Virus record (IMG/VR): IMGVR_UViG_3300030328_002321
Location: 1 to 64,000 of that record
Reading direction: 5' to 3' (one strand)
Length of the DNA stretch: 64,000 nt
From: a virus
Positions 14,992-27,536 of this stretch are shown here, piece after piece. The position numbers and the translations under genes were made by a program. The notes beneath the pieces were generated by a model that was not told the DNA's origin, did not search any database, and worked only from the letters and a program-made list of their open reading frames with translations. Every line of letters starts with the position of its first letter. Positions within the stretch are counted from its first letter, which is position 1.

Positions 14992-16077
14992 TTAAATATT
15001 AAGATCTAAACTATCTAAATCAAAACTTTTAGTTCTTCTTGTTTGTTTACGAGCACTTTTTACAGTCTCTTCGTTTTTAGATATTTTTTCTCTCAATGTC
15101 TTCGTAGCCGTTGTTTTAGCTTTTTTGTTAATTATTTCCTCTAGATTAAATCCTTTATACATTAAATAATCTATAGCTAATTTCTTTTCCATTTCAGCTT
15201 GCGAGTGATCTAAATCACGTTGCGTGTAACCTTCTTTAGTTACCGGCTTCGAGAGATAGTTAAAGAATTTTGTTTTTTCTCTTTCTGGAACTTGCAATCC
15301 TGCAAACTCTTTTGATTCTTTAATTGTCTCTTGAACTCCATTCCAGAACTTTACTTGTTCTTCTTGTTGCCTTTTTTGTTCTGTTTTTTGTTGTTCTACT
15401 AATTGCTCTTTTTCCTGTGCCTGTACTTTACCTAAAGCTTGTCTAGCTGCTTCTGCTTTATTATGTAATTTTCCAGAATCTTCATAGTCTTCAATCATTT
15501 CTTTAATAAAGTCTTGATCATGACCTTTTTGATTAAAATAATCAGCTAAAATTGCTTTTTGACTTCTTGAATCATCTTCTGCAATCTCCATACTATTATA
15601 ATCTAGACTAGGATCATAAGCTTTCATAAATTTTTGAGATTCTCCTCCAGCTAATACATAATCTAAATGTTTTTTAACTAAAGGAAATTTTTCAAGAACC
15701 TCATCAATTCTATCATCTGCCATTTGAGAAGCTACATCTTTAGTCATTTCTGTTAAACCTTCTGCGGTATCTTCATACTCACCTTCATATCCTAGGCTAC
15801 TTAGTATTTCTGATACAACTGTAGGTTCAGAAGTTTCTTCTTCTGTATCTTCTTTTTCTTCTACTTTTTCCTCTTTTACTTCTTCTTCAACTTCCTCTTC
15901 GTCATTATCTTCAATGTCTTCAAGTTCTGCTTCAGGTTTTTCTACTTCTTCTTTTACTTCTTCTTTTACTTCTTCAATAGGTTCTATTTCATCGATAGTA
16001 TCTACTGCAACTCCATCACCTGCAATGACTTCGTCAAAGGTAATATCGTCTAATTGTATTTTTTCATTTGGGTCCAT
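14992..16077 (-). CDS. Acidic coiled-coil protein, putative scaffold
   Basis: Glu-rich N-terminus and coiled coil; directly upstream of the MCP as in crAss-like phages. Confidence 0.7.
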   Translation of the reverse strand: MDPNEKIQLDDITFDEVIAGDGVAVDTIDEIEPIEEVKEEVKEEVEKPEAELEDIEDNDEEEVEEEVKEEKVEEKEDTEEETSEPTVVSEILSSLGYEGEYEDTAEGLTEMTKDVASQMADDRIDEVLEKFPLVKKHLDYVLAGGESQKFMKAYDPSLDYNSMEIAEDDSRSQKAILADYFNQKGHDQDFIKEMIEDYEDSGKLHNKAEAARQALGKVQAQEKEQLVEQQKTEQKRQQEEQVKFWNGVQETIKESKEFAGLQVPEREKTKFFNYLSKPVTKEGYTQRDLDHSQAEMEKKLAIDYLMYKGFNLEEIINKKAKTTATKTLREKISKNEETVKSARKQTRRTKSFDLDSLDLNI

Positions 16078-16167: not shown

Positions 16168-18849
16168 TTACCAGCATCCATACTTACATTTTTTCTTAAG
16201 TCCTCCTTTTTTAAACATGTTTTTAGTTCTTTTATTCCATTTTTTCCTTTCTACATTTATTTCTTTTTCAGTAAGATCTTGTATATTCTTACCATTAACT
16301 TTTCCTTTATGATTATTAAGCCAATATATAAAAACATTTTCTTGTGTAGGATTTTTAAGCACTTCATCAAAGTTATCTCTTCGTTCTACTCCTCCGTATA
16401 ACTTATCTCCTAAAAATAATGCATCTTGATCATCTCTACTAAGGTTAGAAAAATCTTGAGATGGACTAGCTATATATTTCTCATATATATTTGTAAAATC
16501 TTTTATAGTTTTAGTTGAACCAAAATATGTTTTATTTGCTGAAGAAGCTAAAAAATTAGCAGTTCTATTCATAGCTGTATTAGCTCCTTTTTTATCTCCT
16601 ATTTCAAATTGATATGCACCTCTACCAGGCCCATCATAAAAAGTTCCATCGTCGTTTTGTGAAACTTGAATTTTATCATCTACATTTCCAGATTCATGTT
16701 CAGCTATAGCATTCATAACAAGATTTACATTAGTTGTATCACTGCCTCTAAAATCCATATAACTCATCATATGATCTCTAAGACCACCATCTTCAAACTT
16801 CATATCAAATTTTTCACCTGTAATTTTATGTACTCCAGTATCAGGATCAATTAGAGTAGATCCAACACCAACTTCTAAAGGTGATAACATAAGTGCAGAT
16901 CTACCTAACAAACGCATTAAACTTCTATCTATTCTTGTATCTGGATTCTTTTTTCTATAATTTTCTATTTCTTTTCTTTTAAACTCATCACCCCTAATAT
17001 ATGCATCAAAGTACTGTTTAACATTCAAACCTTTAGTTTTTATATATTGTTTCATTCTTTCAAGGTCATTCATTGTCATCTGATCGTTTGTATAGCCATA
17101 AAGAAATGTTGGGGTACCTTTTTCTAAATCTTTTTTTACATTTAGATTTAAAACAGACATTATATTATCTTTTGAAAAAGCATCTTCTTTTAAAAACTTC
17201 CCTGTTTTACCAAATGTACTCCATCCTCCATCTTTAAAACTTACTGTTTCTTCCTTGTTTTCTGACGTTGCTGCTCCTGCACTTACAGCAACTGGAGCTA
17301 TAGCCCATGCTTTTCCTATAACGTTTTTCATTTGTTTTGGAGTAGCATCTGCATATCTAATAAGCATTTCTACATCATGAGGAACTTCTGATTTTGATAC
17401 AGCTTTAATAAGTGAACGTATCATATCATCTGTTAAATTTTCTGGCTTTCCATCCCACTTTACATTTTGTTTTAACCACTCTCCAGCTCTTACAAGTCTT
17501 GGTTGTTGTTCTGCAGGATCTTTCATATAATTTATTGCATTGGTTCCTACTTCTTTTTTTATTTTAAGAGTAGGATAGTTTTTATAAACTTCTGGTCCAA
17601 TAAATTCATCATACTGATTAGCTATTGGAGCATCTGGATTAGCAACTTTCATTTTTCCTGTAGGACTCCCAGCATGTCCAATCTCATGTTTTAATACATC
17701 CATTGTTTCGTCACTTAAATTTATTCCGTAACCTCTTTTTACATACATTCTTCCAACCTCTCCAGATGGGGCTCCATAGTATTGTCCCCAAGCGCCTTTC
17801 ATCCGCAGTTGTGATATTTGATCGTCAAAAAACTCCATATTTATAGGAGCTTCATTTACTTCTTTTACATAATCATCAACATGTGCTTTAACTACTTTCA
17901 AACTTTCTCCTGTATTAGCCATTCTTTTAGATGCATACTCATCACTTTGTAAATATTTTATATGGCTTAGTTTTGCTTTAAAAACTTTTTCTACATCAGC
18001 TTTACTTAATTTACCAGGATTTAAAGGCCCAGCTGCTAGTTCTTCTATAGGCGTATCATCTAGTAAAGACATATCGTCGTACTTAGGAACTCTTGCATTT
18101 GACATATCTGTAGAAAGTGGATTTTTTTTAAATAAATCTTTTGCTTTACCATATGCTTTTCCAATAGGTCCTAATATAACATCATCTATAAGTCCTGGTA
18201 TTTTTGCACCTGATGCTGATACTTTCATACTATTTAAGAAAGGAATAGGTGCAGCAAGTCCTATAAAAGTTTCACCATAATCTTGAGCCCTTTGTTTAAC
18301 GTCACCACTAGCATACATTTGATTAGATGATCCTGAGATCCACTGTTTATTAGGATTATTACCTATATATTTATTTCTAGTGTCGTAAACAACTCCTGTT
18401 ACACTCTCTCTAGTACCAGTATTTTTTTCAGTTATTAATCTTATCATTTTTTCTTGATCAGTCTCAGATTCTATTACTGTTGGGATATTTACAGGAGCAA
18501 CAGCTGTAGAAGAAGCTTCTGCTGTATGTAATCCTCCATGAGATTTTTTTACTCCTCCTGTTTTTAATAATTGAGGTTCTGGAGATCCTGTTGGTAAATC
18601 TTGTATTTGTAGAGATGTGTTACTAGAACTATCTACTAAAGAATTTGCAGTTGATGGAATAGAATCCATACTTACATTTTGTACTGGTGGGGGTGATGTA
18701 GGTGGAAGCTCTACAGGTTGAGGAGTAGAAATTTGTTGTTCTTCTTGTTGAGGTAAAATTGGTTGACCTTGAAGAGCTGCTATTATATCTCCAGATCCAG
18801 ATGTTTTTACCTGTTCTAGTATTGCTCTTCTATCTTGGTTTGTTAGCAT
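16168..18849 (-). CDS. Modular virion cargo protein with a zincin-like (HEIGH) and a lysozyme-like domain
   Basis: VLKHEIGHAG; AIAEHESG...GPGRGAYQFE; repeated xxxGG linker motifs. Confidence 0.55.
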   Translation of the reverse strand: MLTNQDRRAILEQVKTSGSGDIIAALQGQPILPQQEEQQISTPQPVELPPTSPPPVQNVSMDSIPSTANSLVDSSSNTSLQIQDLPTGSPEPQLLKTGGVKKSHGGLHTAEASSTAVAPVNIPTVIESETDQEKMIRLITEKNTGTRESVTGVVYDTRNKYIGNNPNKQWISGSSNQMYASGDVKQRAQDYGETFIGLAAPIPFLNSMKVSASGAKIPGLIDDVILGPIGKAYGKAKDLFKKNPLSTDMSNARVPKYDDMSLLDDTPIEELAAGPLNPGKLSKADVEKVFKAKLSHIKYLQSDEYASKRMANTGESLKVVKAHVDDYVKEVNEAPINMEFFDDQISQLRMKGAWGQYYGAPSGEVGRMYVKRGYGINLSDETMDVLKHEIGHAGSPTGKMKVANPDAPIANQYDEFIGPEVYKNYPTLKIKKEVGTNAINYMKDPAEQQPRLVRAGEWLKQNVKWDGKPENLTDDMIRSLIKAVSKSEVPHDVEMLIRYADATPKQMKNVIGKAWAIAPVAVSAGAATSENKEETVSFKDGGWSTFGKTGKFLKEDAFSKDNIMSVLNLNVKKDLEKGTPTFLYGYTNDQMTMNDLERMKQYIKTKGLNVKQYFDAYIRGDEFKRKEIENYRKKNPDTRIDRSLMRLLGRSALMLSPLEVGVGSTLIDPDTGVHKITGEKFDMKFEDGGLRDHMMSYMDFRGSDTTNVNLVMNAIAEHESGNVDDKIQVSQNDDGTFYDGPGRGAYQFEIGDKKGANTAMNRTANFLASSANKTYFGSTKTIKDFTNIYEKYIASPSQDFSNLSRDDQDALFLGDKLYGGVERRDNFDEVLKNPTQENVFIYWLNNHKGKVNGKNIQDLTEKEINVERKKWNKRTKNMFKKGGLKKKCKYGCW

Positions 18850-21112
18850 TCTGTTTTGCTATTTCTTTTTTACTCTGTATATCTTCTCTTTTAACAGCAG
18901 CAGCTTCTGAATTTCCTTGCATTTTTAATTCTAACTCTTGCTCTTTTAATTCTAATTCTCGTTTTTTAAGTTCAAAATCTTGAATCATTTTTTCTAGATT
19001 AAGAGAATTAGCATCTGTTTGATCTTTAGACTCTGCAGCTATTAAAGCAATTTCAATATCTTTTTGTCTATCTTTTTCTCTTTCAACCATCTCAGCTTCA
19101 AGTTGCATTTGTTGTGCTTCTAACTCTTGTTGTTGCATTTCTTGCTGAGCTTGTTGTTGAGCTTGTTCTAATTCTTGATTAGCTTTATCTGCAAGTTTAA
19201 GATTCTTTTTAATTTCAGTGAAACTGTCTGAGTCTAACATTTCAGCTATATCTCCTGGCTTAGCGCCATTTTGCATCATAGCTTGTGTTAATCCTTTGAT
19301 GTTTTGTAGTTTTTCTTGATCTTTACCTGCATCAGAAACAAATATACCATAATTAGTTTCCATATGTTCCATACTATTTACATCTAAATAATCTGTAGTA
19401 CCATCAGGCATTACAAACATTCCTTTTTTACCTGTTAACCATGCTTCTTTAGAATAGTCTAATAATGCTTGGAAATCTCTTTGTTCCATTCTTTCAAACT
19501 TTCTAAATAAATCTTCTGTAATATGTGATGATTGTAATATAGCTTGTTGTGAAGATGCTTTACCTTCATATGCTCCAATTTCACCTTGTCTTTGTCTACT
19601 TACACCAGAAATCTTTTCCCATTCCACTAATATAGAATCTAATAATGTAATATACTGACTTATAGTTTTTATAGACATATCCATAACAGATTGATGCTGT
19701 GGATTTAATTGTATTCCTTCTTTATTATAATCTACCCAAGCAATACCTGTACCTTCTACATAGTACATAAATTTATCCATATCCCATTTTTTAGGGATCA
19801 TATTAATATCAAATTGTGCAATTATATCTTTACTTCTTGCAATAGCAAGCTCTAATCTATATTTATAAATATTATAATTTAATTGATAAGGTATACCAAG
19901 TTTAACTAAAGATATATTTTTAGAATTTGTATCTGAATATCTTCTACCATTAATAGGTAATTTACATTTAGAAGGATTGTCTATAGATAATCTTTGGTTA
20001 AGAATAGGATTAACATTTACATATATTCTACCATCTATTCTTGTACCTTCCCATACTTCATTTACCCATTTCCATTCTAATTGTGCTCCTTGTTCTTTTA
20101 ATTCTGCAGGCATTCTAAATCCATCTTCAACTTCCATTTCTTCTAAAGCTCCTGTGTCTGGATCCATATAAGTTAAAAATCCTATTCTCTTTCTAGATTT
20201 CCAATATACATTTACAACTTCAATTAATCTATTTCTAAAAGCATTAGTATCTTTATTTGCAGAATTAGCATATAAAAAAGAAATATCACCTTCAGAATGT
20301 TTTGGTTCTTCAAGTTCTAGTATTTGTTGTTCTGATAAACTATCATAATATGCATCAATAACTGTAGATGCATGTACATACTTTCTAACTAATGCCCAAT
20401 CACCGTCTTCTACAAATTCTAAATCTGGATCAAGGTCATAGTCTACATCTAAAGGATTTAATATAGAATAATATGGTTCTCCATCTCTTACTCCTCTTTG
20501 TGTGTATGCTTCACCAGTTACTAAATAATGAAACCAAGCTTTTTGAATTTTATCATAAACTTCTTGTTCTTGCATTACATAGTTTAAAGTTTTTTGTCCT
20601 AATATAGCTCTATTGTCTACATAAGAACTTTCAAACATGTCTGCAATATGTTTAGGAGTTGGTATTTCTTCCATATTAGCACCTATATCTACTCCTTGTG
20701 CTTGTACTTCTTGTAAAAATCTTTGTCTTAAATTTTGTGCTATTGCTTCAGACTTTTCCATTTCTTTTAAAGTAAGGGCATCTGAGTTTTGTACTGTAAC
20801 AGTATAATTGAGAGGTCGTTTTGATTTTTCCCCTAGAAGAAGGTCAATTATGGGTTTAATGATGGGGTAGTTACGCATTTCAGAAGGGAAATTCTTACGG
20901 GCTTTGCCATAAGGTTTTAATACGTAATTATAATCTGCCTCATCAATTACACCGTTATAGTAATCATATAATATCTTAAGGTCATTCTTTTGTTTAGAAT
21001 GTGTTTGACCAGAATTAGAAAGATCTATAAATGCCTCCACACATTGTTCTCCCCATTTCTTATTCTTCTTATTAATCGAGAGCTTTTGCCTCGGTATTTT
21101 ATCGTATCCCAT
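18830..21112 (-). CDS. Portal protein
   Basis: 760 aa; NYPIIKPIIDLLLGE, WVNEVWEGTRI and ISGVSRQRQG motifs of crAss-like portals; near TerL. Confidence 0.9.
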   Translation of the reverse strand: MGYDKIPRQKLSINKKNKKWGEQCVEAFIDLSNSGQTHSKQKNDLKILYDYYNGVIDEADYNYVLKPYGKARKNFPSEMRNYPIIKPIIDLLLGEKSKRPLNYTVTVQNSDALTLKEMEKSEAIAQNLRQRFLQEVQAQGVDIGANMEEIPTPKHIADMFESSYVDNRAILGQKTLNYVMQEQEVYDKIQKAWFHYLVTGEAYTQRGVRDGEPYYSILNPLDVDYDLDPDLEFVEDGDWALVRKYVHASTVIDAYYDSLSEQQILELEEPKHSEGDISFLYANSANKDTNAFRNRLIEVVNVYWKSRKRIGFLTYMDPDTGALEEMEVEDGFRMPAELKEQGAQLEWKWVNEVWEGTRIDGRIYVNVNPILNQRLSIDNPSKCKLPINGRRYSDTNSKNISLVKLGIPYQLNYNIYKYRLELAIARSKDIIAQFDINMIPKKWDMDKFMYYVEGTGIAWVDYNKEGIQLNPQHQSVMDMSIKTISQYITLLDSILVEWEKISGVSRQRQGEIGAYEGKASSQQAILQSSHITEDLFRKFERMEQRDFQALLDYSKEAWLTGKKGMFVMPDGTTDYLDVNSMEHMETNYGIFVSDAGKDQEKLQNIKGLTQAMMQNGAKPGDIAEMLDSDSFTEIKKNLKLADKANQELEQAQQQAQQEMQQQELEAQQMQLEAEMVEREKDRQKDIEIALIAAESKDQTDANSLNLEKMIQDFELKKRELELKEQELELKMQGNSEAAAVKREDIQSKKEIAKQNANKPR

Positions 21113-21118
21113 AATTTA

Positions 21119-21126
21119 CAAATTTA
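21119..21126 (-). promoter_or_regulatory. Bacteroidota -7 element (TAAATTTG) just before the portal ATG
   Basis: TAnnTTTG match 6 nt upstream of ATG 21112, in an intergenic gap. Confidence 0.5.
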
Positions 21127-21189
21127 CCTATTTTTTTGTTTGATTTTAACCTTAATACTAATTACTATTATAATATTATAGATATACCA

Positions 21190-21525
21190 CTATAAGTAAT
21201 TGCATATATCATATAAACTATATTTTAAAGTTAATTCTTCTCCTGCTTCTATTTTACGTAATGTTTTTATTACTTTATAATGATAATCATCATCTTTATC
21301 TAGTAATTCACAATTAGGATTATCATTATGATTAATAAATCCTCCTAATGGAGTTCTAATATAATCATGTTGAAAATTTGGATCATAAATGTGAGTAATA
21401 CCTATAACTACCTCTCCCGGAATATCTTCTTTTGCTAGGATCCCCGCTCCGTGAATATCTGATGGTCCAATCGCCAAGTATTCTGGTAGAGGGTTATAAG
21501 GTTTATTGTCTTTTTCTTTATTCAT
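21190..21525 (-). CDS. Minimal SET-domain protein (lysine methyltransferase-like)
   Basis: SDIHGAGILAKEDI (motif I), FINHNDNPNC (NHxxxPN) and IEAGEELTLKY (ELxxxY). Confidence 0.9.
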   Translation of the reverse strand: MNKEKDNKPYNPLPEYLAIGPSDIHGAGILAKEDIPGEVVIGITHIYDPNFQHDYIRTPLGGFINHNDNPNCELLDKDDDYHYKVIKTLRKIEAGEELTLKYSLYDICNYL

Positions 21526-21526
21526 A

Positions 21527-23491
21527 TTAATAATAGTTTTGTTCGAACCACTTATCTGTAGCTCTATCTTCTAATATATCTTTAACTTCCGCATTATAAA
21601 GTTCTCGTGTATGATACATTCCAATCATTAGTGACATTACACGGTCAAAGTTACCCTTGTGATTAAATTTAATTAATTCTGTTAATAAAGCAGGGTCATA
21701 TATTTTATGTAAATTTAGTAATTTTTTTCCTGACTCCTCTGTACTTCTAACAGTGTTTAGCCAGTCTCTTATATATATCTCACCTTGACGCTTCCTTGCT
21801 TCGGTCATATGCATACCATATTGACGTTTTACGTTCTTACTTCTTAACTCTTTTTTGTCTAACATCTCAAATTCTTCTTGCAACTTATGCATTTTTCTAA
21901 ATCTTTTTGCATAAGCTATTACCTCACCTCTATCATTCTCAAATCCTATTTTACACCCATAATAATCTGCTAACATAAACAAATTTCTGTTATAATCATC
22001 TTGTGTATGTGGTCTTCCTACATATGATGCTACAATTATATCATCTGGTTGTGATAAATTGTTAGGTCTTTTTAATACATATGCTGATCCTAAAGATGTG
22101 CTATCTGCAGATTGATTTTGACCATAAGGGTCATGGCATATTACATATAAATTTACTGGAACTTGTTGTTGTTCATTTCTATAAGGTGATTCATATATTA
22201 CAACTGCCCCTGTTTTATCATCATCTTTTCTGTGTGGAAATTTAGTAATAGGTTTTAAATCACCATCTATTTTAAACTTAACTTCTCCTTTTTCGTTATG
22301 ATATAATTTACCTGCAGTACCTATTGCTTGTAAATTTCTAGCTTTTACATTATTATATTGTTCTTGTAATGATGCAATATCAAATAGGTTAGCTGTTATT
22401 TGTAATGTAGCTTCTTGGGGAGAAAAGGGGTGCTCAGCTATATATTGGTCTAAAGATTTTGCATCTGCAGCCCCTTTTTTCTTTTCCCTCATTGTTTCTT
22501 CATATTCTATAGCTTCTTGTTGCTTAGAATTACCGTCATCATCTATAAATCCATCTAAATTCTTTTGTATTGGAATAAAGTATCCACATCTTGTACCTAG
22601 TGCTCCTTCATCCCATATATTTTCATAATCCATACAATCATATGCTGCTGGATTATAAAATATTTCTTCCATAGCTTCAAAATCAGATCCTTCTGTACCA
22701 CCTGTACCAAAAGCTACCATCATTCCTAAAGTTTTAGCACCTTGTCTCATTGTTGGCATTGTTACCTCCCATGCTTTTAATAATCCTGGAAATGATCCTG
22801 CTTCTTCAAAGAAAACTAATTCACCTGCCTTACCCCTTACTTTATCTGGATTATCTTTTAAAGATACCCCCATAATTTGAGACTTCATCCCCATTTCTAT
22901 CTCCATTCCATTTATCTTTTTCTTATATCCAGACATTTTATGCATTTCTCTATCTCTTAACCGAGGTTGAGCCCAAGCAGTATGATCATCTATAAAAGAT
23001 AAAAACTCCCAAGCTTTTGAGAGTAATCCATCACCAATTAAAAATTCTTTAGAGGATGCAAATACAAAGTTTTTACTATTCCTAACAAAAAAGTAATTTC
23101 TAGCAAGCATAGATCCGGCTTTATAGGAATATCCCTTACGCCTTGCTTTTAAAACTATCATATGCTTATTTTCTGCTCTAGCTTTATCTATTTCATGAAA
23201 ATATTCATAATCTCCATCATAAAATCTTGGGAATGTACGTTCACGTTTTGCTTGTATTGATCCATCAGGTAATACTTCATCTACAGCTCTATCGATAGGA
23301 CAATAGTTTAAATAAAAGTAATGAAAACCTGTGATATGTAATTCATCTATAGTATACCCATACATACATCTATTTTGTTCTTCATCCCAGAACTCATAGT
23401 ATTCTCTAGTTCCTGGAAGTGCAGATGTATAGTGTCCGTATTTTATAAAGTTAACGGCGGCAGGTCTGACTCTGTCTGTTTCTTTGAGCAT
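21527..23491 (-). CDS. terL: Terminase large subunit
   Basis: LKARRKGYSYK Walker A, FFEEAG Walker B, GTGG coupling motif, RNase H-like domain (CHDPY, NFDRVMS). Confidence 0.95.
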   Translation of the reverse strand: MLKETDRVRPAAVNFIKYGHYTSALPGTREYYEFWDEEQNRCMYGYTIDELHITGFHYFYLNYCPIDRAVDEVLPDGSIQAKRERTFPRFYDGDYEYFHEIDKARAENKHMIVLKARRKGYSYKAGSMLARNYFFVRNSKNFVFASSKEFLIGDGLLSKAWEFLSFIDDHTAWAQPRLRDREMHKMSGYKKKINGMEIEMGMKSQIMGVSLKDNPDKVRGKAGELVFFEEAGSFPGLLKAWEVTMPTMRQGAKTLGMMVAFGTGGTEGSDFEAMEEIFYNPAAYDCMDYENIWDEGALGTRCGYFIPIQKNLDGFIDDDGNSKQQEAIEYEETMREKKKGAADAKSLDQYIAEHPFSPQEATLQITANLFDIASLQEQYNNVKARNLQAIGTAGKLYHNEKGEVKFKIDGDLKPITKFPHRKDDDKTGAVVIYESPYRNEQQQVPVNLYVICHDPYGQNQSADSTSLGSAYVLKRPNNLSQPDDIIVASYVGRPHTQDDYNRNLFMLADYYGCKIGFENDRGEVIAYAKRFRKMHKLQEEFEMLDKKELRSKNVKRQYGMHMTEARKRQGEIYIRDWLNTVRSTEESGKKLLNLHKIYDPALLTELIKFNHKGNFDRVMSLMIGMYHTRELYNAEVKDILEDRATDKWFEQNYY

Positions 23492-23742
23492 TTATCTTTT
23501 ATTTTAACTAATTCTGAACATTTTTCATATTCTTCTGTACTTGTAAAATATTCTATTACAATATCTATTATATCTGGAGTTCTACCATCATCTATGATTG
23601 GATCAAAGGGTAAAGGAAAGCGATCTATGCTATCATTCTCTAAATCATAATAAATATCGTCAATAGTCTTTTTTTTAGTTATTATCATGTAAGCATTTTG
23701 CATTGCCTCATTATAAAGCTCTATATCTTCTAAATAATCCAT
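23443..23742 (-). CDS. Hypothetical protein
   Basis: IEYFTSTEEYEKCSEL, a UVR-like helical motif; overlaps terL. Confidence 0.5.
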   Translation of the reverse strand: MDYLEDIELYNEAMQNAYMIITKKKTIDDIYYDLENDSIDRFPLPFDPIIDDGRTPDIIDIVIEYFTSTEEYEKCSELVKIKDKCSKKQTESDLPPLTL

Positions 23743-24263
23743 TACATACTATATTTATTCACTTCTATTCCACCTCTATTTGTATTAGCGGCTTGTTCTT
23801 CTTTTTTAACTATTTCTTCTAAATTTCTAAGACCATCTACTACCTTACCCATTTTTTCTAAGTTATTAATTAGGTCTTTAGCATGAAAAATTGGTCGACC
23901 ATTATCATCTATTAAAGTTAAATCTATATCTCTAAAATATTTTTCTAATTTTATTACAGATTCTCTTGCAGCTCTTAATAATCTAACTGCAGATGTTTCT
24001 ATTAATTTATCATACTTTTTACACGCTGCTAATATTTTAGGGGTAGGTGTAAACTTACTTTCTGCTCCAAATATACTATTTTTTACTTCAACTATACGCT
24101 GTTCCCATTCATAAACAGAAAAAGGTGATTTATGATCTGTTGTAAAGTATACAAAAGCAAGTTCTTTTGGTTTTAATTCTTTGAATTCTAATATAGTTAA
24201 AGCATATCCACTAAGAACAGCTTTATTATCTACTATGTGTATTAAATCATCTCTCAGACTCAT
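23742..24263 (-). CDS. Putative terminase small subunit / crAss conserved protein
   Basis: Helical 173-aa protein ending NRGG..., two genes upstream of terL. Confidence 0.45.
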   Translation of the reverse strand: MSLRDDLIHIVDNKAVLSGYALTILEFKELKPKELAFVYFTTDHKSPFSVYEWEQRIVEVKNSIFGAESKFTPTPKILAACKKYDKLIETSAVRLLRAARESVIKLEKYFRDIDLTLIDDNGRPIFHAKDLINNLEKMGKVVDGLRNLEEIVKKEEQAANTNRGGIEVNKYSM

Positions 24264-24513
24264 TTTCTTTTTTTAAATTTTCTAAAGCTTGTAATATTGT
24301 AGGAAATTGCATACAATAATCATATAATATCTTTTCATCTTCTGTATGCTTTTTCTTATTGTTATGTATTAAAACATATTTAAATAAAGCTTCTATATTA
24401 TTTTGTAACTGTTTTTCTTGATTACGTATTAGCATATATGCATCATAATCAATTTTCTTAGGTGCTCCATTAAGGAAAATTTTTTTCTTAGTTTTCTTTT
24501 GACTCTTTATCAT
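24247..24513 (-). CDS. Hypothetical protein
   Basis: ORF in a packed operon, overlapping its neighbours. Confidence 0.55.
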   Translation of the reverse strand: MIKSQKKTKKKIFLNGAPKKIDYDAYMLIRNQEKQLQNNIEALFKYVLIHNNKKKHTEDEKILYDYCMQFPTILQALENLKKENESER

Positions 24514-24730
24514 TATTTTTTTTATTTTTTAAAGCAGTTAAATATTTAACTCTATTTGGATTCACAGAAAACTTACCAAAATAAGGAAGTCTTACCATTT
24601 CAAATTTTCCCTTTTTCATAACTTTCTCTACAAATTTAAACTGATGATTTACTATTTGTTCTATTTTTTGTAGAGGCAACTTATATTTAGTTGCTAGTAG
24701 CTGTATTATCGCCTTTTTGTCTTTGGCCAT
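24488..24730 (-). CDS. HU/IHF-like DNA-binding protein
   Basis: Lys-rich 80 aa; helix-helix followed by VRLPYFGKFSV, the HU/IHF VxLxGFGxF signature. Confidence 0.7.
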   Translation of the reverse strand: MAKDKKAIIQLLATKYKLPLQKIEQIVNHQFKFVEKVMKKGKFEMVRLPYFGKFSVNPNRVKYLTALKNKKNNDKESKEN

Positions 24731-25004
24731 CTAATATTTGTTTTTTCCATCTTTGTGGTTTATCTGGACATGTAGTTGTTTTCCACTTTGCTTTATGTTC
24801 TAATAAACATCCACATAATCCGCATCTCATCTGAGGCTTTAAAACATGTTCACAATTATTACACGCTTCTAATCTTTGTACATAATCTTCTGTTGTTACA
24901 TTTGGTGCTCCTTGTTTTACATATTCTTTTAGATCTCTTGCAAAAGAACTAATCATATTAAATAATGAAGGCGGTTGTATCTTAGGATCTTCTGGATTAT
25001 TCAT
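24687..25004 (-). CDS. Small Cys-rich (Zn-binding) protein
   Basis: RLEACNNC...RCGLCGC...KAKW...CP...W pattern. Confidence 0.65.
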   Translation of the reverse strand: MNNPEDPKIQPPSLFNMISSFARDLKEYVKQGAPNVTTEDYVQRLEACNNCEHVLKPQMRCGLCGCLLEHKAKWKTTTCPDKPQRWKKQILDGQRQKGDNTATSN

Positions 25005-25113
25005 AATAATTTATTTTAATCGTTAATAATTCTCCATTTCTATCTTGTAGTATTATTATTTCCATATCTCCTATTTCAAAATAGGATGGAACTATTTCTT
25101 CGAATATTCTCAT
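24997..25113 (-). CDS. Small hypothetical protein, 38 aa (absent from the ORF track)
   Basis: Manual translation MRIFEEIVPSYFEIGDMEIIILQDRNGELLTIKINYYE; fills the gap with coupled start and stop codons. Confidence 0.5.
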   Translation of the reverse strand: MRIFEEIVPSYFEIGDMEIIILQDRNGELLTIKINYYE

Positions 25114-25460
25114 TAGTCTTTCTTTATTATTACTTCTACAAAAGAAGTATCTGGATTTAAAAAAGGATTTAACGAATATATATTATTATTTTTATTCAAA
25201 ACTCCTTTATCCTTAAATCTTTTTACATAATTATTTAAAGTATTATAATCTTTTATTCCTACTATCCTTGCAACCTCTCTTTTATTTTTTACACTGCATA
25301 TATTTTCTTCACTAGTAATATTCTGTACATCTATAAATGCAGATAGTATTTGCATACCTTTTTCCGTTAAATTAAAAATACCATTCCATAATTGTACGTA
25401 TTTATACGTAGTATCTATATTAACAGTAATTTTTTTCCTATTTTCTTTTTTCTTTGTCAT
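25113..25460 (-). CDS. Winged-helix DNA-binding protein (RepL-like)
   Basis: LTEKGMQIL...REVARIVGI...LNNYVKRFKDKGVL...YSLNP. Confidence 0.6.
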   Translation of the reverse strand: MTKKKENRKKITVNIDTTYKYVQLWNGIFNLTEKGMQILSAFIDVQNITSEENICSVKNKREVARIVGIKDYNTLNNYVKRFKDKGVLNKNNNIYSLNPFLNPDTSFVEVIIKKD

Positions 25461-25641
25461 TTTCTAGTATTTTAATAAGACCATTTTGTGTGTTTAACGG
25501 TCTTGAGTTTTTAAATGTACGGTATTCTTCAGGATTAAATATAAGTTTAACTTCTCTTACTAATTTATTATCATCATATTTTACAATCCATCTATTTTTA
25601 TAGTGCATTTTCTTTCTTTTCAACTGTGCTAAATAACTCAT
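25438..25641 (-). CDS. Hypothetical basic protein
   Basis: ORF coupled to its neighbours. Confidence 0.55.
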   Translation of the reverse strand: MSYLAQLKRKKMHYKNRWIVKYDDNKLVREVKLIFNPEEYRTFKNSRPLNTQNGLIKILENDKEKRK

Positions 25642-25877
25642 TTCTTTTGCATTTTAACTGTTCCGTTTGTATCTATTTCAATAATAGAAGATTTAGATTG
25701 TTTATTAAACTCTGTAACATATGGGGCTATATCCGTACGAGTTACTAAAAATGATAAGAATACTTGTAATTCTTTTAATAATCTATCACTTTTTTCTTGT
25801 AACTCAATAGTTTTTATCTTAGCATCTAATAATGCATGATAATCTTCAAGTTTTAGAGTAACTTGGCCTTTTACCAC
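25638..25877 (-). CDS. Hypothetical protein
   Basis: VTLKLEDYHALL N-terminus, coiled coil; coupled to groES. Confidence 0.55.
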   Translation of the reverse strand: MVKGQVTLKLEDYHALLDAKIKTIELQEKSDRLLKELQVFLSFLVTRTDIAPYVTEFNKQSKSSIIEIDTNGTVKMQKK

Positions 25878-26140
25878 TTTCCTAATATTTGATGTTCTGA
25901 TATAATTAAATATAACTGACCATCAATCTCTGTTCTTGCAGCTTCTGATCTAGGATCTACCATAACAGTATCCCCTTTTTCTACAAAATGACAATTAGGT
26001 CCAACAGCTAGCGCCTCCAAAACGTTTGATCGCTTTGCATTTTCCTTAGCTGTAGCCTCATCTAAGATTATTCCTGATTCTGTTTCTGTAATTACTGGGT
26101 CTGGAAGGACAACCCACGATCCACTTGGTTTAAAATTCAT
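25871..26140 (-). CDS. groES: Co-chaperonin GroES-like protein
   Basis: FKPSGSWVV, ETESGIIL mobile loop, AVGP, VEKGDTV and YLIISEHQILG. Confidence 0.85.
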   Translation of the reverse strand: MNFKPSGSWVVLPDPVITETESGIILDEATAKENAKRSNVLEALAVGPNCHFVEKGDTVMVDPRSEAARTEIDGQLYLIISEHQILGKW

Positions 26141-26157
26141 ATCTATATATTTTTATG

Positions 26158-26190
26158 CAAATATATAAACAAATTTTTTATAGTTCCAAA
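26158..26190 (-). promoter_or_regulatory. Bacteroidota sigma-A promoter for the groES-terminase operon
   Basis: TTTG (26190-26187), 21-nt spacer, TATATTTG (26165-26158). Confidence 0.7.
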
Positions 26191-26199
26191 TATTTTAAA

Positions 26200-26468
26200 G
26201 AAAAGTTTTAATACGAGAGAATTAGATATAACTCTCCCCCTTGAGGATTCTATTTCAAGTTGTGATTTCACTCTAGCAGTGCTCCGTTTTACGGGACCCA
26301 AGGATACTAAAACTGGTGTTAATTCACCGCACTTACCTGTGTGCATTGTATCCTAACTAGAGCTTATACGTTAACTCTTTTGCAACTACCGGAGAAAACT
26401 CTATCTCTATTTGAGACTACAATCCGATGTCTAATCCCTTTTTTGTTTACCGGGGGATGATAATGTTG
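26200..26468 (-). ncRNA. Candidate structured non-coding RNA (about 250 nt)
   Basis: Raised GC, nested inverted repeats, its own promoter upstream and a second promoter downstream. Confidence 0.55.
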
Positions 26469-26473
26469 CAGTG

Positions 26474-26504
26474 CAAAATTAATAAAAATATATTACAATG
26501 CAAA
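26474..26504 (-). promoter_or_regulatory. Bacteroidota sigma-A promoter driving the candidate ncRNA
   Basis: TTTG (26504-26501), 19-nt spacer, TAATTTTG (26481-26474). Confidence 0.7.
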
Positions 26505-26745
26505 TAAAAACACACAAATCATTAATAAAATATATATGACAGGAGAAATATCAAATTTTTTCATACTACAAATATACCTACCCTGATCTCTAGGGATGTT
26601 AAGGAAATGTTAAATTTTAAAATAAAAAAAATTTTTTTTGATGGGTTTGTGAACGTGTGAACCAACACAATCAAAGACCCCCGCTATGCTACGCACTTAA
26701 AACACCCCGCATTGGGATTGTTAGTGTTAATACATAATTTGCCTT

Positions 26746-27000
26746 ATGGATAATCCAATTTTAGCGACGTATATACGTCCAACTCAATCACTCAACCACG
26801 TAATGGTTGCGTATCAACCTAATATATTCTCTACTAATAAGATTATTGCTTATGTAAAGAATAGTGACTTTTTTAAATCCTTTGTTAAAGGACAAGAGTT
26901 TAAATTACCAGCTAATCCTCGTCCTGAATTTCGTTTCACCGAAGATGGAGAGAGATATGAGTATTCTGATGGTACACCGCAAGTGTATTTAGAGTGGTAA
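26746..27000 (+). CDS. Hypothetical early protein
   Basis: First plus-strand ORF, followed by a terminator. Confidence 0.6.
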   Translation: MDNPILATYIRPTQSLNHVMVAYQPNIFSTNKIIAYVKNSDFFKSFVKGQEFKLPANPRPEFRFTEDGERYEYSDGTPQVYLEW

Positions 27001-27003
27001 GAT

Positions 27004-27024
27004 AAGGGACTTTGTCCCTTTTTT
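27004..27024 (+). terminator. Rho-independent terminator
   Basis: AAGGGAC-TTT-GTCCCTT followed by TTTT. Confidence 0.65.
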
Positions 27025-27179
27025 CTACCACAATCAAAACAATTACGCACACACGGTCAACAGACCTTTGCTAAACTTCGCAAGTTTGTAAGTGTGCAAG
27101 TCAGGTCGTATTCACCACTTTTTACCACAATCTGACACTCAATCAATTTAATCACATAACATAATATAACATTAGTAAT

Positions 27180-27536
27180 ATGAAATACGTTAGAACACAA
27201 CTAAAAGATGCTCACACTACAAGAGATGGTGTAGTATCTAAAATAGCTGACCTTACAACTAGTCATTTAAATAACATTATAAAGTTTTGGACAATAAGAG
27301 CATATCATGGAGTATCAGTATCATATCCACCAATGGATGATGGTAAAGGAAATGTATGTGAAGATGGTGGCAAGCTTTATTATGACGGAGTAGCTATATT
27401 AAGAGAAATAAGTTTATTATCATACATTATAGAATACAATAAAAGAGATAATTGCTTTGCTGATTACAATGCAATATGTAAAGAAGTTGGCGGTAATGGT
27501 AGTATTCGTGATGAATATCCTTATGACTGGGATTAA
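27180..27536 (+). CDS. Hypothetical early protein
   Basis: HTTRDG...IADLTTSHLNNII, a pattern common in small phage proteins. Confidence 0.65.
   Translation: MKYVRTQLKDAHTTRDGVVSKIADLTTSHLNNIIKFWTIRAYHGVSVSYPPMDDGKGNVCEDGGKLYYDGVAILREISLLSYIIEYNKRDNCFADYNAICKEVGGNGSIRDEYPYDWD

Follow-up and report, generated by a model that had tools for sequence, protein, structure and literature searches.

The 64,000-nucleotide stretch of viral DNA analysed here, positions 1 to 64,000 of IMG/VR record IMGVR_UViG_3300030328_002321, carries a 111-residue open reading frame (ORF) between the genes for the terminase large subunit (terL) and the portal. The question raised by this locus is whether the ORF is a genuine SET-domain methyltransferase and, if so, what a phage would methylate with it. 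The whole stretch is referred to below as the window; its source record is a virus contig of 85,958 bp that is rated as complete, and the DNA of that record is found in marine and seawater metagenome runs. The ORF (21190-21525) encodes a genuine minimal stand-alone SET-domain protein, whose cofactor and catalytic motifs are intact. The gene is an optional accessory cassette in marine crAss-like phages. We consider it probable that this moron-like cassette specifies an active S-adenosylmethionine (SAM)-dependent SET enzyme, most likely a protein-lysine methyltransferase.

The Pfam SET family (PF00856) matches the protein with E = 3.8e-10 and 40.5 bits (cut-off 22.4), aligning residues 62-102 only, and a six-frame search of the whole record finds the family at 35.9 bits. 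PHROG 28741, described as 'unknown function', is matched over residues 10-107 (E = 3.1e-23). NCBIfam offers no family for this protein or for two bacterial homologues tested; homologues L103 and L096 show only weak matches to T4SS_AnkI/LegAS4 (NF043024), of 16.2 and 20.7 bits with a cut-off of 550. The original prediction had read three SET signature motifs from the ORF and proposed a PF00856 search. The protein indeed scores above the gathering threshold, and all three motifs, H-G-A-G (25-28), F-I-N-H-x-x-x-P-N (63-71) and E-E-L-T-L-K-Y (96-102), are confirmed by an alignment of 84 family members that are 36-85% identical to the query. P12, G28, G42, R57, E97 and Y102 are invariant across these 84 sequences, and Y10, L13, P14, S22, G26, H45, T58, P59, L60, G61, G62, N65, H66, S67, P70 and N71 are at least 90% conserved. 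Residues 63-71 (F63-I-N65-H66-N-D-N-P70-N71) align with 'RFINHSCEPNC' of KMT2A, and 'EELTLKYS' aligns with 'EELTYDYK' of the same enzyme. From this alignment we take Y102 to stand at the position of the catalytic tyrosine and Leu100 at that of the Phe/Tyr switch.

Sequence and structure comparisons both give the catalytic SET domains of the SET1/MLL (KMT2) enzymes as the best matches; the NH..PN and EELTxxY motifs align with theirs residue for residue. The single sequence matches KMT2A with E = 2e-5. Searched against PDB sequences, the 84-member profile identifies KMT2D (E = 1.2e-11) and aligns with chlorovirus vSET over its whole length (1n3j, E = 8.4e-10; profile 10-97 to chain 4-106 of 119). 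The AF2 model (pLDDT 88.6, pTM 0.77) places the MLL1 SET domain among the top Foldseek matches (E = 5e-6) and gives TM-scores of 0.66/0.69 to vSET (3kma). VIA-align superimposes the model onto SET1/MLL1 with Z = 12.2 and an rmsd of 1.4 over 84 aligned residues, onto the small Plasmodium SET protein PFL0690c with Z = 12.0, and onto vSET with Z = 11.7 and an rmsd of 2.7 over 90 of 105 residues. Solved SET domains cover residues ~10-108 of the predicted model, including the C-terminal pseudoknot region. According to the profile alignment and the secondary structure of the model, the SET-I insert is reduced to ~9 residues and there is no post-SET segment; KMT2D spans 119 residues for 90 aligned profile positions. 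Unlike the phage protein, KMT2 enzymes possess a full SET-I and a post-SET, need WRAD partners and act on nucleosomes.

The original prediction had likened the ORF product to vSET (A612L), the H3K27 methyltransferase of chlorovirus PBCV-1, and this likeness is upheld in size and predicted fold. Both are virus-encoded stand-alone cores (111 and 119 residues), and neither has a pre-SET or post-SET region. The two differ in that sequence identity is only 17-19% and the SET-I of the phage protein is shorter still. The host is predicted to be bacterial from the crAss-like terL, a TAnnTTTG box before the portal gene and the habitat of the DNA runs, and no histone is expected there. The substrate would thus have to differ from that of vSET.

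vSET and other small SET proteins have been solved as dimers, and a symmetric homodimer is also predicted here. Three runs gave ipSAE values of 0.77, 0.75 and 0.21 (median 0.75), and the best of three controls reached 0.01; the mark applied to this score is attained by 20 of 30 proteins solved as one-chain pairs and by 1 of 23 solved as single chains. The runs show at least 60% contact agreement and a partner pLDDT of at least 80. The pass may partly reflect the likeness of the model to known SET structures. Predicted interface residues are 6-10, 12, 18-20, 27, 46, 48, 52-53, 56-59, 61-63 and 108-111. Two motifs set the subfamily apart from other SET proteins, Y10-x-P12-L-P near the N-terminus and R57-T-P-L-G-G62 just before FINH, and both fall within this interface.

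These features suggest how the protein could work. It would be a stripped core consisting of the N-SET strands with GxG, a much shortened SET-I, and the C-SET, whose NH..PN and EELxxxY elements would form the pseudoknot. The Y10-x-P12-L-P and R57-T-P-L-G-G62 motifs would build the interface of a homodimer that is probably symmetric, as in vSET, and dimerization could substitute for the missing SET-I and post-SET walls. The GxG/NH/Y102 site would carry out the chemistry with Y102 as the catalytic tyrosine, and Leu100 at the switch position would allow multiple methylation. The opposite view, that this is a catalytically dead SET fold acting by binding, like many PR/SET pseudo-enzymes, draws on the extreme truncation (short SET-I and no post-SET) and on the presence of PR-domain structures among the fold matches, with Z of 10.4-10.7. 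Pure binding would not need GxG, NH, PN, E97 and Y102, however, and each of these is either invariant or kept in at least 90% of 84 divergent members; we therefore regard a dead enzyme as highly improbable.

How the gene is distributed among related phages was evaluated with IMG/VR. A search seeded with the SET protein yielded 121 relatives, of which 80 were kept. Wherever these loci extend past the gene, terL lies upstream (77 of 77) and the portal gene downstream (78 of 78). Because such a set is biased to carriers, a second set of 80 loci was seeded by terL alone: 47 carry SET, 30 lack it, and three end too early to tell. The 30 SET-less relatives have terL abutting the portal gene with a spacer of 80-95 nt. 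In these phages, TGGTATAT(T/C)TATAA directly follows the terL stop, and in SET-bearing phages it directly follows the SET stop; it thus marks the 3' edge of the cassette. The portal-side end of the spacer is also alike with and without SET, reading AAATTTGTAA(A/G)(A)TT just before the portal ATG. With both spacer ends preserved, the 0.34-kb ORF is a clean cassette appended to terL. The features of the locus are collected in the table.

Table. Position and support of the features at the SET locus of the window
Feature	Position	Strand	Basis or remark
Mini-SET methyltransferase gene	21190-21525	-	111 aa, ATG start, no pre-SET/post-SET, shortened SET-I
Single-base spacer, terL stop (TAA) to SET start (ATG)	21526	-	Sequence
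Terminase large subunit (terL), gene upstream of SET cassette	21527-23491	-	PHROG 6681, E = 5.5e-137
Spacer motif TGGTATATCTATAA (minus strand), right after SET stop	21176-21189	-	Junctions of 4 SET-bearing and 7 SET-less loci, and window sequence
Spacer conserved at both ends	21113-21189 (window)	-	Also in L133, L140, L155, L160, L171, L172, L182, L187, L192, L197
TAAATTTG box (TAnnTTTG match), 6 nt upstream of portal ATG	21119-21126	-	Kept in SET-bearing and SET-less relatives
Portal, downstream neighbour of SET	18830-21112	-	PHROG 6547, E = 1.6e-122; Pfam P22_portal, 30.6 bits
HU/IHF-like gene, context only	24488-24730	-	PF00216, 27.8 bits; 22.5% Lys

The junction itself reads TAA-A-ATG on the minus strand, so that the SET start codon lies one base past the terL stop, as the original prediction had stated; sampled relatives show either TAA-A-ATG again or a TAATG overlap. 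The portal gene begins 77 nt downstream of the SET stop. The GC content of the SET gene (0.30) is similar to that of the neighbouring genes and thus gives no sign of recent foreign origin. Direct adjacency of terL and portal had been presumed to be the usual state, and this is correct both for the 30 SET-less relatives and for crAssphage cr114_1, in which the portal gene follows terL after 6 nt. The cr114_1 terL is the best match to the window terL among gut crassviruses, at 42.7% identity. The possibility that SET is a core packaging gene of the Crassvirales is ruled out by its absence from 30 of 77 decidable relatives and by the direct succession of terL and portal in cr114_1. Furthermore, tblastn of the SET protein against 50,697 GenBank phage records, which include crass-like ones matching the window terL, finds no Crassvirales record at E <= 1e-3, and no near-identical DNA of the locus occurs among the GenBank phages.

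The presence of SET was mapped onto a terL tree of 77 rows (76 loci and the window), from which one SET-bearing locus with a truncated terL and the three undecidable loci were omitted. At least six changes are needed, at least two of them forced by starred branches; shuffling the trait gives a mean of 23.7 changes, and none of 500 shuffles is as low as the observed six. Nor does SET identity track terL identity: in one relative (L140) the terL is 92% identical and the SET protein 77%. These two observations point to repeated loss, gain or exchange of the gene. Where present, it is under purifying selection, with a median pairwise dN/dS of 0.146 (390 pairs, 49 unique sequences) next to 0.084 for terL and 0.173 for the HU-like gene. 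This value and the 2932 homologues found at E <= 1e-3 show that the ORF is not a chance reading frame.

One alternative is that the enzyme acts during assembly on proteins of the phage particle itself or on its cargo (portal, capsid or ejected proteins), either stabilizing them or masking their lysines from host proteases or lysine-directed defences. The location between terL and portal in the virion block agrees with this, as do a homologue that adjoins baseplate genes in cyanophage P-RSM6 and the best BFVD match to the SET protein, a 971-residue 'SET domain-containing protein' of an uncultured virus. SET-less relatives, however, make virions with portals that are 60-80% identical, and for the bacterial chromosomal homologues described below there is no virion that could be modified. 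As a lead, K-x-GG motifs were considered in the cargo protein encoded downstream of the portal: K-x(0-2)-GG was counted over the initial 300 residues encoded by the gene that follows the portal, at 22 SET-bearing and 13 SET-less loci. The motif occurs in both groups with no co-variation, and the lead was rejected. Overall, methylation of the phage's virion or cargo proteins seems unlikely.

The terL-seeded relatives also bear on the proposal that SET is paired with the phage's lysine-rich HU/IHF-like protein, or with host HU, and puts a methyl-lysine mark on a nucleoid protein or a protein of packaged DNA, which would make it a phage 'chromatin writer'. That the HU-like gene exists is confirmed: it passes Pfam Bac_DNA_binding (PF00216; 27.8 bits, cut-off 22.4), and 18 of its 80 residues are lysine (22.5%). 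Within the strand block that it shares with SET, it lies 3 kb further upstream. There are also functional analogies for the idea, since a 2014 review describes SET proteins of prokaryotes with no histones or with atypical chromatin that methylate small basic DNA-binding proteins, namely Chlamydia cpnSET (Hc1) and Methanosarcina Go1-SET (MC1-alpha) (PMC3980110). HU is universal in bacteria, and host HU as a target would suit the broad spread of the family. However, every relative with room upstream has the HU-like gene, whether SET-less (24 of 24) or SET-bearing (36 of 36), so there is no co-variation, and none of three other SET-bearing phages (Kolga, P-RSM6 and P-SSM7) has a PF00216 match. 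Nor does SET occur in any Crassvirales record of the GenBank search above. cpnSET and Go1-SET are cellular genes, unlike the phage SET, which shows no link to an HU-type gene. The histone-code-like pairing put forward in the original prediction is not supported by these data; it was dropped as the leading idea, and we find it very doubtful. By analogy, HU-type proteins of phage or host are possible substrates among many candidates, none of which is singled out.

The wider family extends well beyond these phages. A near-length search returns the 2932 homologues mentioned above, which measure 106-133 residues among the 120 matches listed, and an exhaustive HMMER search of representatives clustered at 50% identity gives 1026 with E <= 1e-3, 419 of them with E <= 1e-10; most are 95-130 residues long. 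In the ESM Atlas, the closest clusters bear the label SET, and 93-100% of their members are viral; BFVD entries carry the name 'SET domain containing protein [uncultured Caudovirales phage]'. Six GenBank phage records, representing four phages and no crassvirus, contain a SET match. In cyanophage P-SSM7 the homologue lies between nrdB and talC, in P-RSM6 before gp25/baseplate, and in Pelagibacter phage Kolga after an AAA protein. Among species-representative genomes, 47 loci match, several of which are clearly phage contigs binned into metagenome-assembled genomes (MAGs). The SET protein on a 'Pelagibacter' MAG contig (L110) is identical to that of Kolga, and that on a 'Methanobacteriota' MAG contig (L122) adjoins the P-SSM7 protein on the tree; both are probably binned phage contigs.

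Three bacterial groups possess chromosomal-looking, lineage-specific copies. In Porticoccaceae (nine loci) the order is fabA-fabB-SET, followed by redoxin and ssb on the other strand. These loci (L107, L116-L118, L120, L123, L126, L129 and L131) form one mini-SET clade with a support of 98, with the gene in a fixed position immediately after fabA-fabB and facing a redoxin-ssb-MFS block. This suggests that a family which is otherwise mostly viral has here a cellular copy passed on by vertical descent. Flavobacteriaceae show two arrangements, either inside an arginine operon (L087, L094 and L098) or after a PHP/Ig protein, and in Saccharibacteria SET stands beside a class II tRNA synthetase or an ABC transporter. 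A comparison of all phage and bacterial contexts reveals no common neighbour gene. A tree built from 131 family members has a star-like shape (14 of its 127 inner branches are starred), and no donor of the crAss-clade gene can be named from it. Longer, fused forms are few (11 at E <= 1e-8 among 996 candidates) and their partners heterogeneous: a ~240-residue domain, Amidoligase_2, a lamin-tail domain and a PHROG 'hydrolase'. Because the partners are inconsistent, fusions were dropped as a functional clue.

The bacterial contexts give some substance to another alternative, in which the protein is a small-molecule methyltransferase, encoded by an auxiliary metabolic gene, that acts on a free amino acid or metabolite. 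The precedent is BurB, a 172-residue SET-domain enzyme that converts methionine to S-methyl-methionine (structures 9L4T/9L4V; PMC12542666). Its Met S-methyltransferase activity establishes that a SET fold can serve such chemistry. BurB resembles the phage protein in being a small SET-domain enzyme, here from a bacterium, and in forming oligomers, which for the phage protein are predicted; it is also matched by the predicted fold. It differs in its length, in being a tetramer and in its reported substrate contacts, the main chains of Arg70, Thr73 and Met132 (PMC12542666). In one Flavobacteriaceae clade all three loci have the homologue within the arginine operon, and in L098 and L087 it stands between a semialdehyde dehydrogenase (argC-like) gene and a pyrroline-5-carboxylate reductase gene. 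The P-SSM7 homologue is likewise found amid metabolic genes (nrdAB and talC), and a short SET-I with a predicted closed dimer leaves little obvious peptide groove. Nevertheless, the model is nearer to protein-lysine SET domains than to BurB. BurB 9l4t appears at rank 31 (Z = 8.8, rmsd 3.0, 95 residues aligned, 20% identity), versus ~18 clusters of lysine methyltransferases and PR domains at Z = 12.2-10, and it is not among the best 60 of 133 PDB sequence matches to the family profile. The catalytic-type tyrosine is invariant in the phage family, whereas the corresponding Tyr124 of BurB is reported not to be catalytic, the Y124F variant keeping >60% activity (PMC12542666). Finally, the other contexts (fabAB, tRNA synthetase, baseplate and terL) have no metabolic theme. 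A small-molecule substrate is accordingly a live alternative, albeit one to which we give rather little weight.

We note, as an observation on its own, that the arginine operon reads GNAT, argG-like, argC-like, SET, proC-like, class-III aminotransferase, carbamoyltransferase, and that the ends of the 97-residue mini-SET gene nearly abut or overlap the adjacent genes (L087, 4659-4952; L098, 5995-6288). It is an odd location for a protein methyltransferase.

A protein-lysine methyltransferase remains our preferred assignment, and several points weigh against it. The three Flavobacteriaceae homologues are encoded within an operon for amino-acid biosynthesis, which together with BurB is what keeps a small-molecule substrate under consideration. 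SET-I contributes to the peptide groove of larger SET enzymes; with a SET-I of ~9 residues and no post-SET, a peptide-binding groove in the model can only be assumed. The weakest of the three dimer runs scored just 0.21. The function must be dispensable, since the gene is missing from 30 of 77 decidable relatives. Lastly, our literature search found no report of activity, SAM binding or substrate for members of the subfamily.

As to the target, a widely conserved host protein, or lysines generally on abundant proteins, would be more likely than a crAss-specific partner, because the family occurs in unrelated phages and in bacterial chromosomes without a constant neighbour. The one lineage of marine crAss-like phages in which the cassette follows terL probably infects Flavobacteriia. 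A more speculative extension, which we consider quite unlikely, is that SET is a mobile 'lysine-masking' enzyme that methylates exposed lysines on phage structural or cargo proteins, or on conserved host proteins, for counter-defence or take-over. Made late together with virion proteins, it would block attacks by the host that are directed at lysines, for instance ubiquitin-like conjugation, proteolysis or ADP-ribosylation, or would reprogramme a conserved host factor. If true, a cassette spreading among marine phages would encode a new kind of counter-defence or take-over enzyme.

The phage mini-SET belongs to a known enzyme superfamily, and its large subfamily is already labelled in databases; PHROG 28741 and the UniProt entries 'SET domain containing protein [uncultured Caudovirales phage]' are the same family under automatic labels. 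A literature search, with supplementary tables of bacterial SET genes outside its scope, found no study of a bacteriophage SET enzyme and no experimental paper. The sole phage mention encountered is a one-line annotation of ORF62 of Stenotrophomonas phage Ps15 (PMC9025141), and the 2014 review contains neither 'phage' nor 'virus' (PMC3980110). An apparent 'SET domain' in the crAss001 structure paper was discarded, as the term there denotes 'C2-set' immunoglobulin domains (PMC10172136). New here are the presence/absence structure of the cassette, the selection estimate, the bacterial chromosomal homologues and the predicted dimer formed through family-specific motifs. Little has been charted of protein-lysine methylation in bacteria and their viruses, and the locus provides a natural experiment: in closely related marine crAss-like phages, one 0.34-kb cassette is either present or missing at the same fixed site. 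If the enzyme acts on a conserved host protein or on a component of host defence, phages would have a new way of taking over their hosts; if it acts on a metabolite, the gene would be a new auxiliary metabolic gene.

When the gene is expressed can be judged from its position. SET lies in a long co-directional minus-strand packaging/virion block, one base behind terL, so that co-expression with terL is the natural expectation; the gene would be read together with terL, and hence late in infection. The position is in line with the late expression that had been proposed. Logan contigs from RNA libraries, which derive from relatives and are mostly <95% identical, show that the region is present in such libraries but give no information on level, strand or ends. 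In three of these libraries, from two studies, a contig spans the boundary between terL and SET (X16, 21357-21565; X17, 21343-21583; X19, 21368-21681), but as they come from relatives and RNA libraries may contain DNA, they lend weak support to co-transcription. Downstream, the TAAATTTG box matches the TAnnTTTG consensus, which we take to be the Bacteroidota-type -7 promoter element. It is possibly such an element, giving a near-leaderless portal mRNA; were it a promoter, SET would belong to the terL transcription unit and the portal gene would have its own start. A sigma-70 promoter scan of 18000-27500 was at chance (57 sites, 53.9 expected), as was a terminator scan of the same region (five sites, 3.1 expected), and neither was used.

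Some further observations concern these regions. The X16, X17 and X19 contigs that cover window positions 20138-21095 share a physical end at 21095, 17 nt inside the portal ORF, which weakly hints at a transcript end near the portal start; in the same contigs, 20625-20699 is replaced by a diverged stretch of equal length. A similar box, TTAAATTTGTAAATT, occurs 20 nt before the gene at 14992-16077. Among the fused family members, the metagenomic proteins P0271-P0273 (345-366 residues) carry SET relatives of 60-65% identity behind a conserved ~240-residue domain that has no Pfam or PHROG match, P0208 joins SET to Amidoligase_2, and P0139 joins it to the PHROG 'hydrolase'; the amidoligase-SET fusion was sought in IMG/VR and nothing was found. 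Finally, a lysine-rich ORF (24247-24513; 88 residues, 18% Lys) lies between the HU-like gene and orf173. Of the 80 SET-seeded loci, only four (L031, L032, L033 and L080) contain a detectable relative of this ORF, making it a variable slot within the block that holds SET and the HU-like gene.

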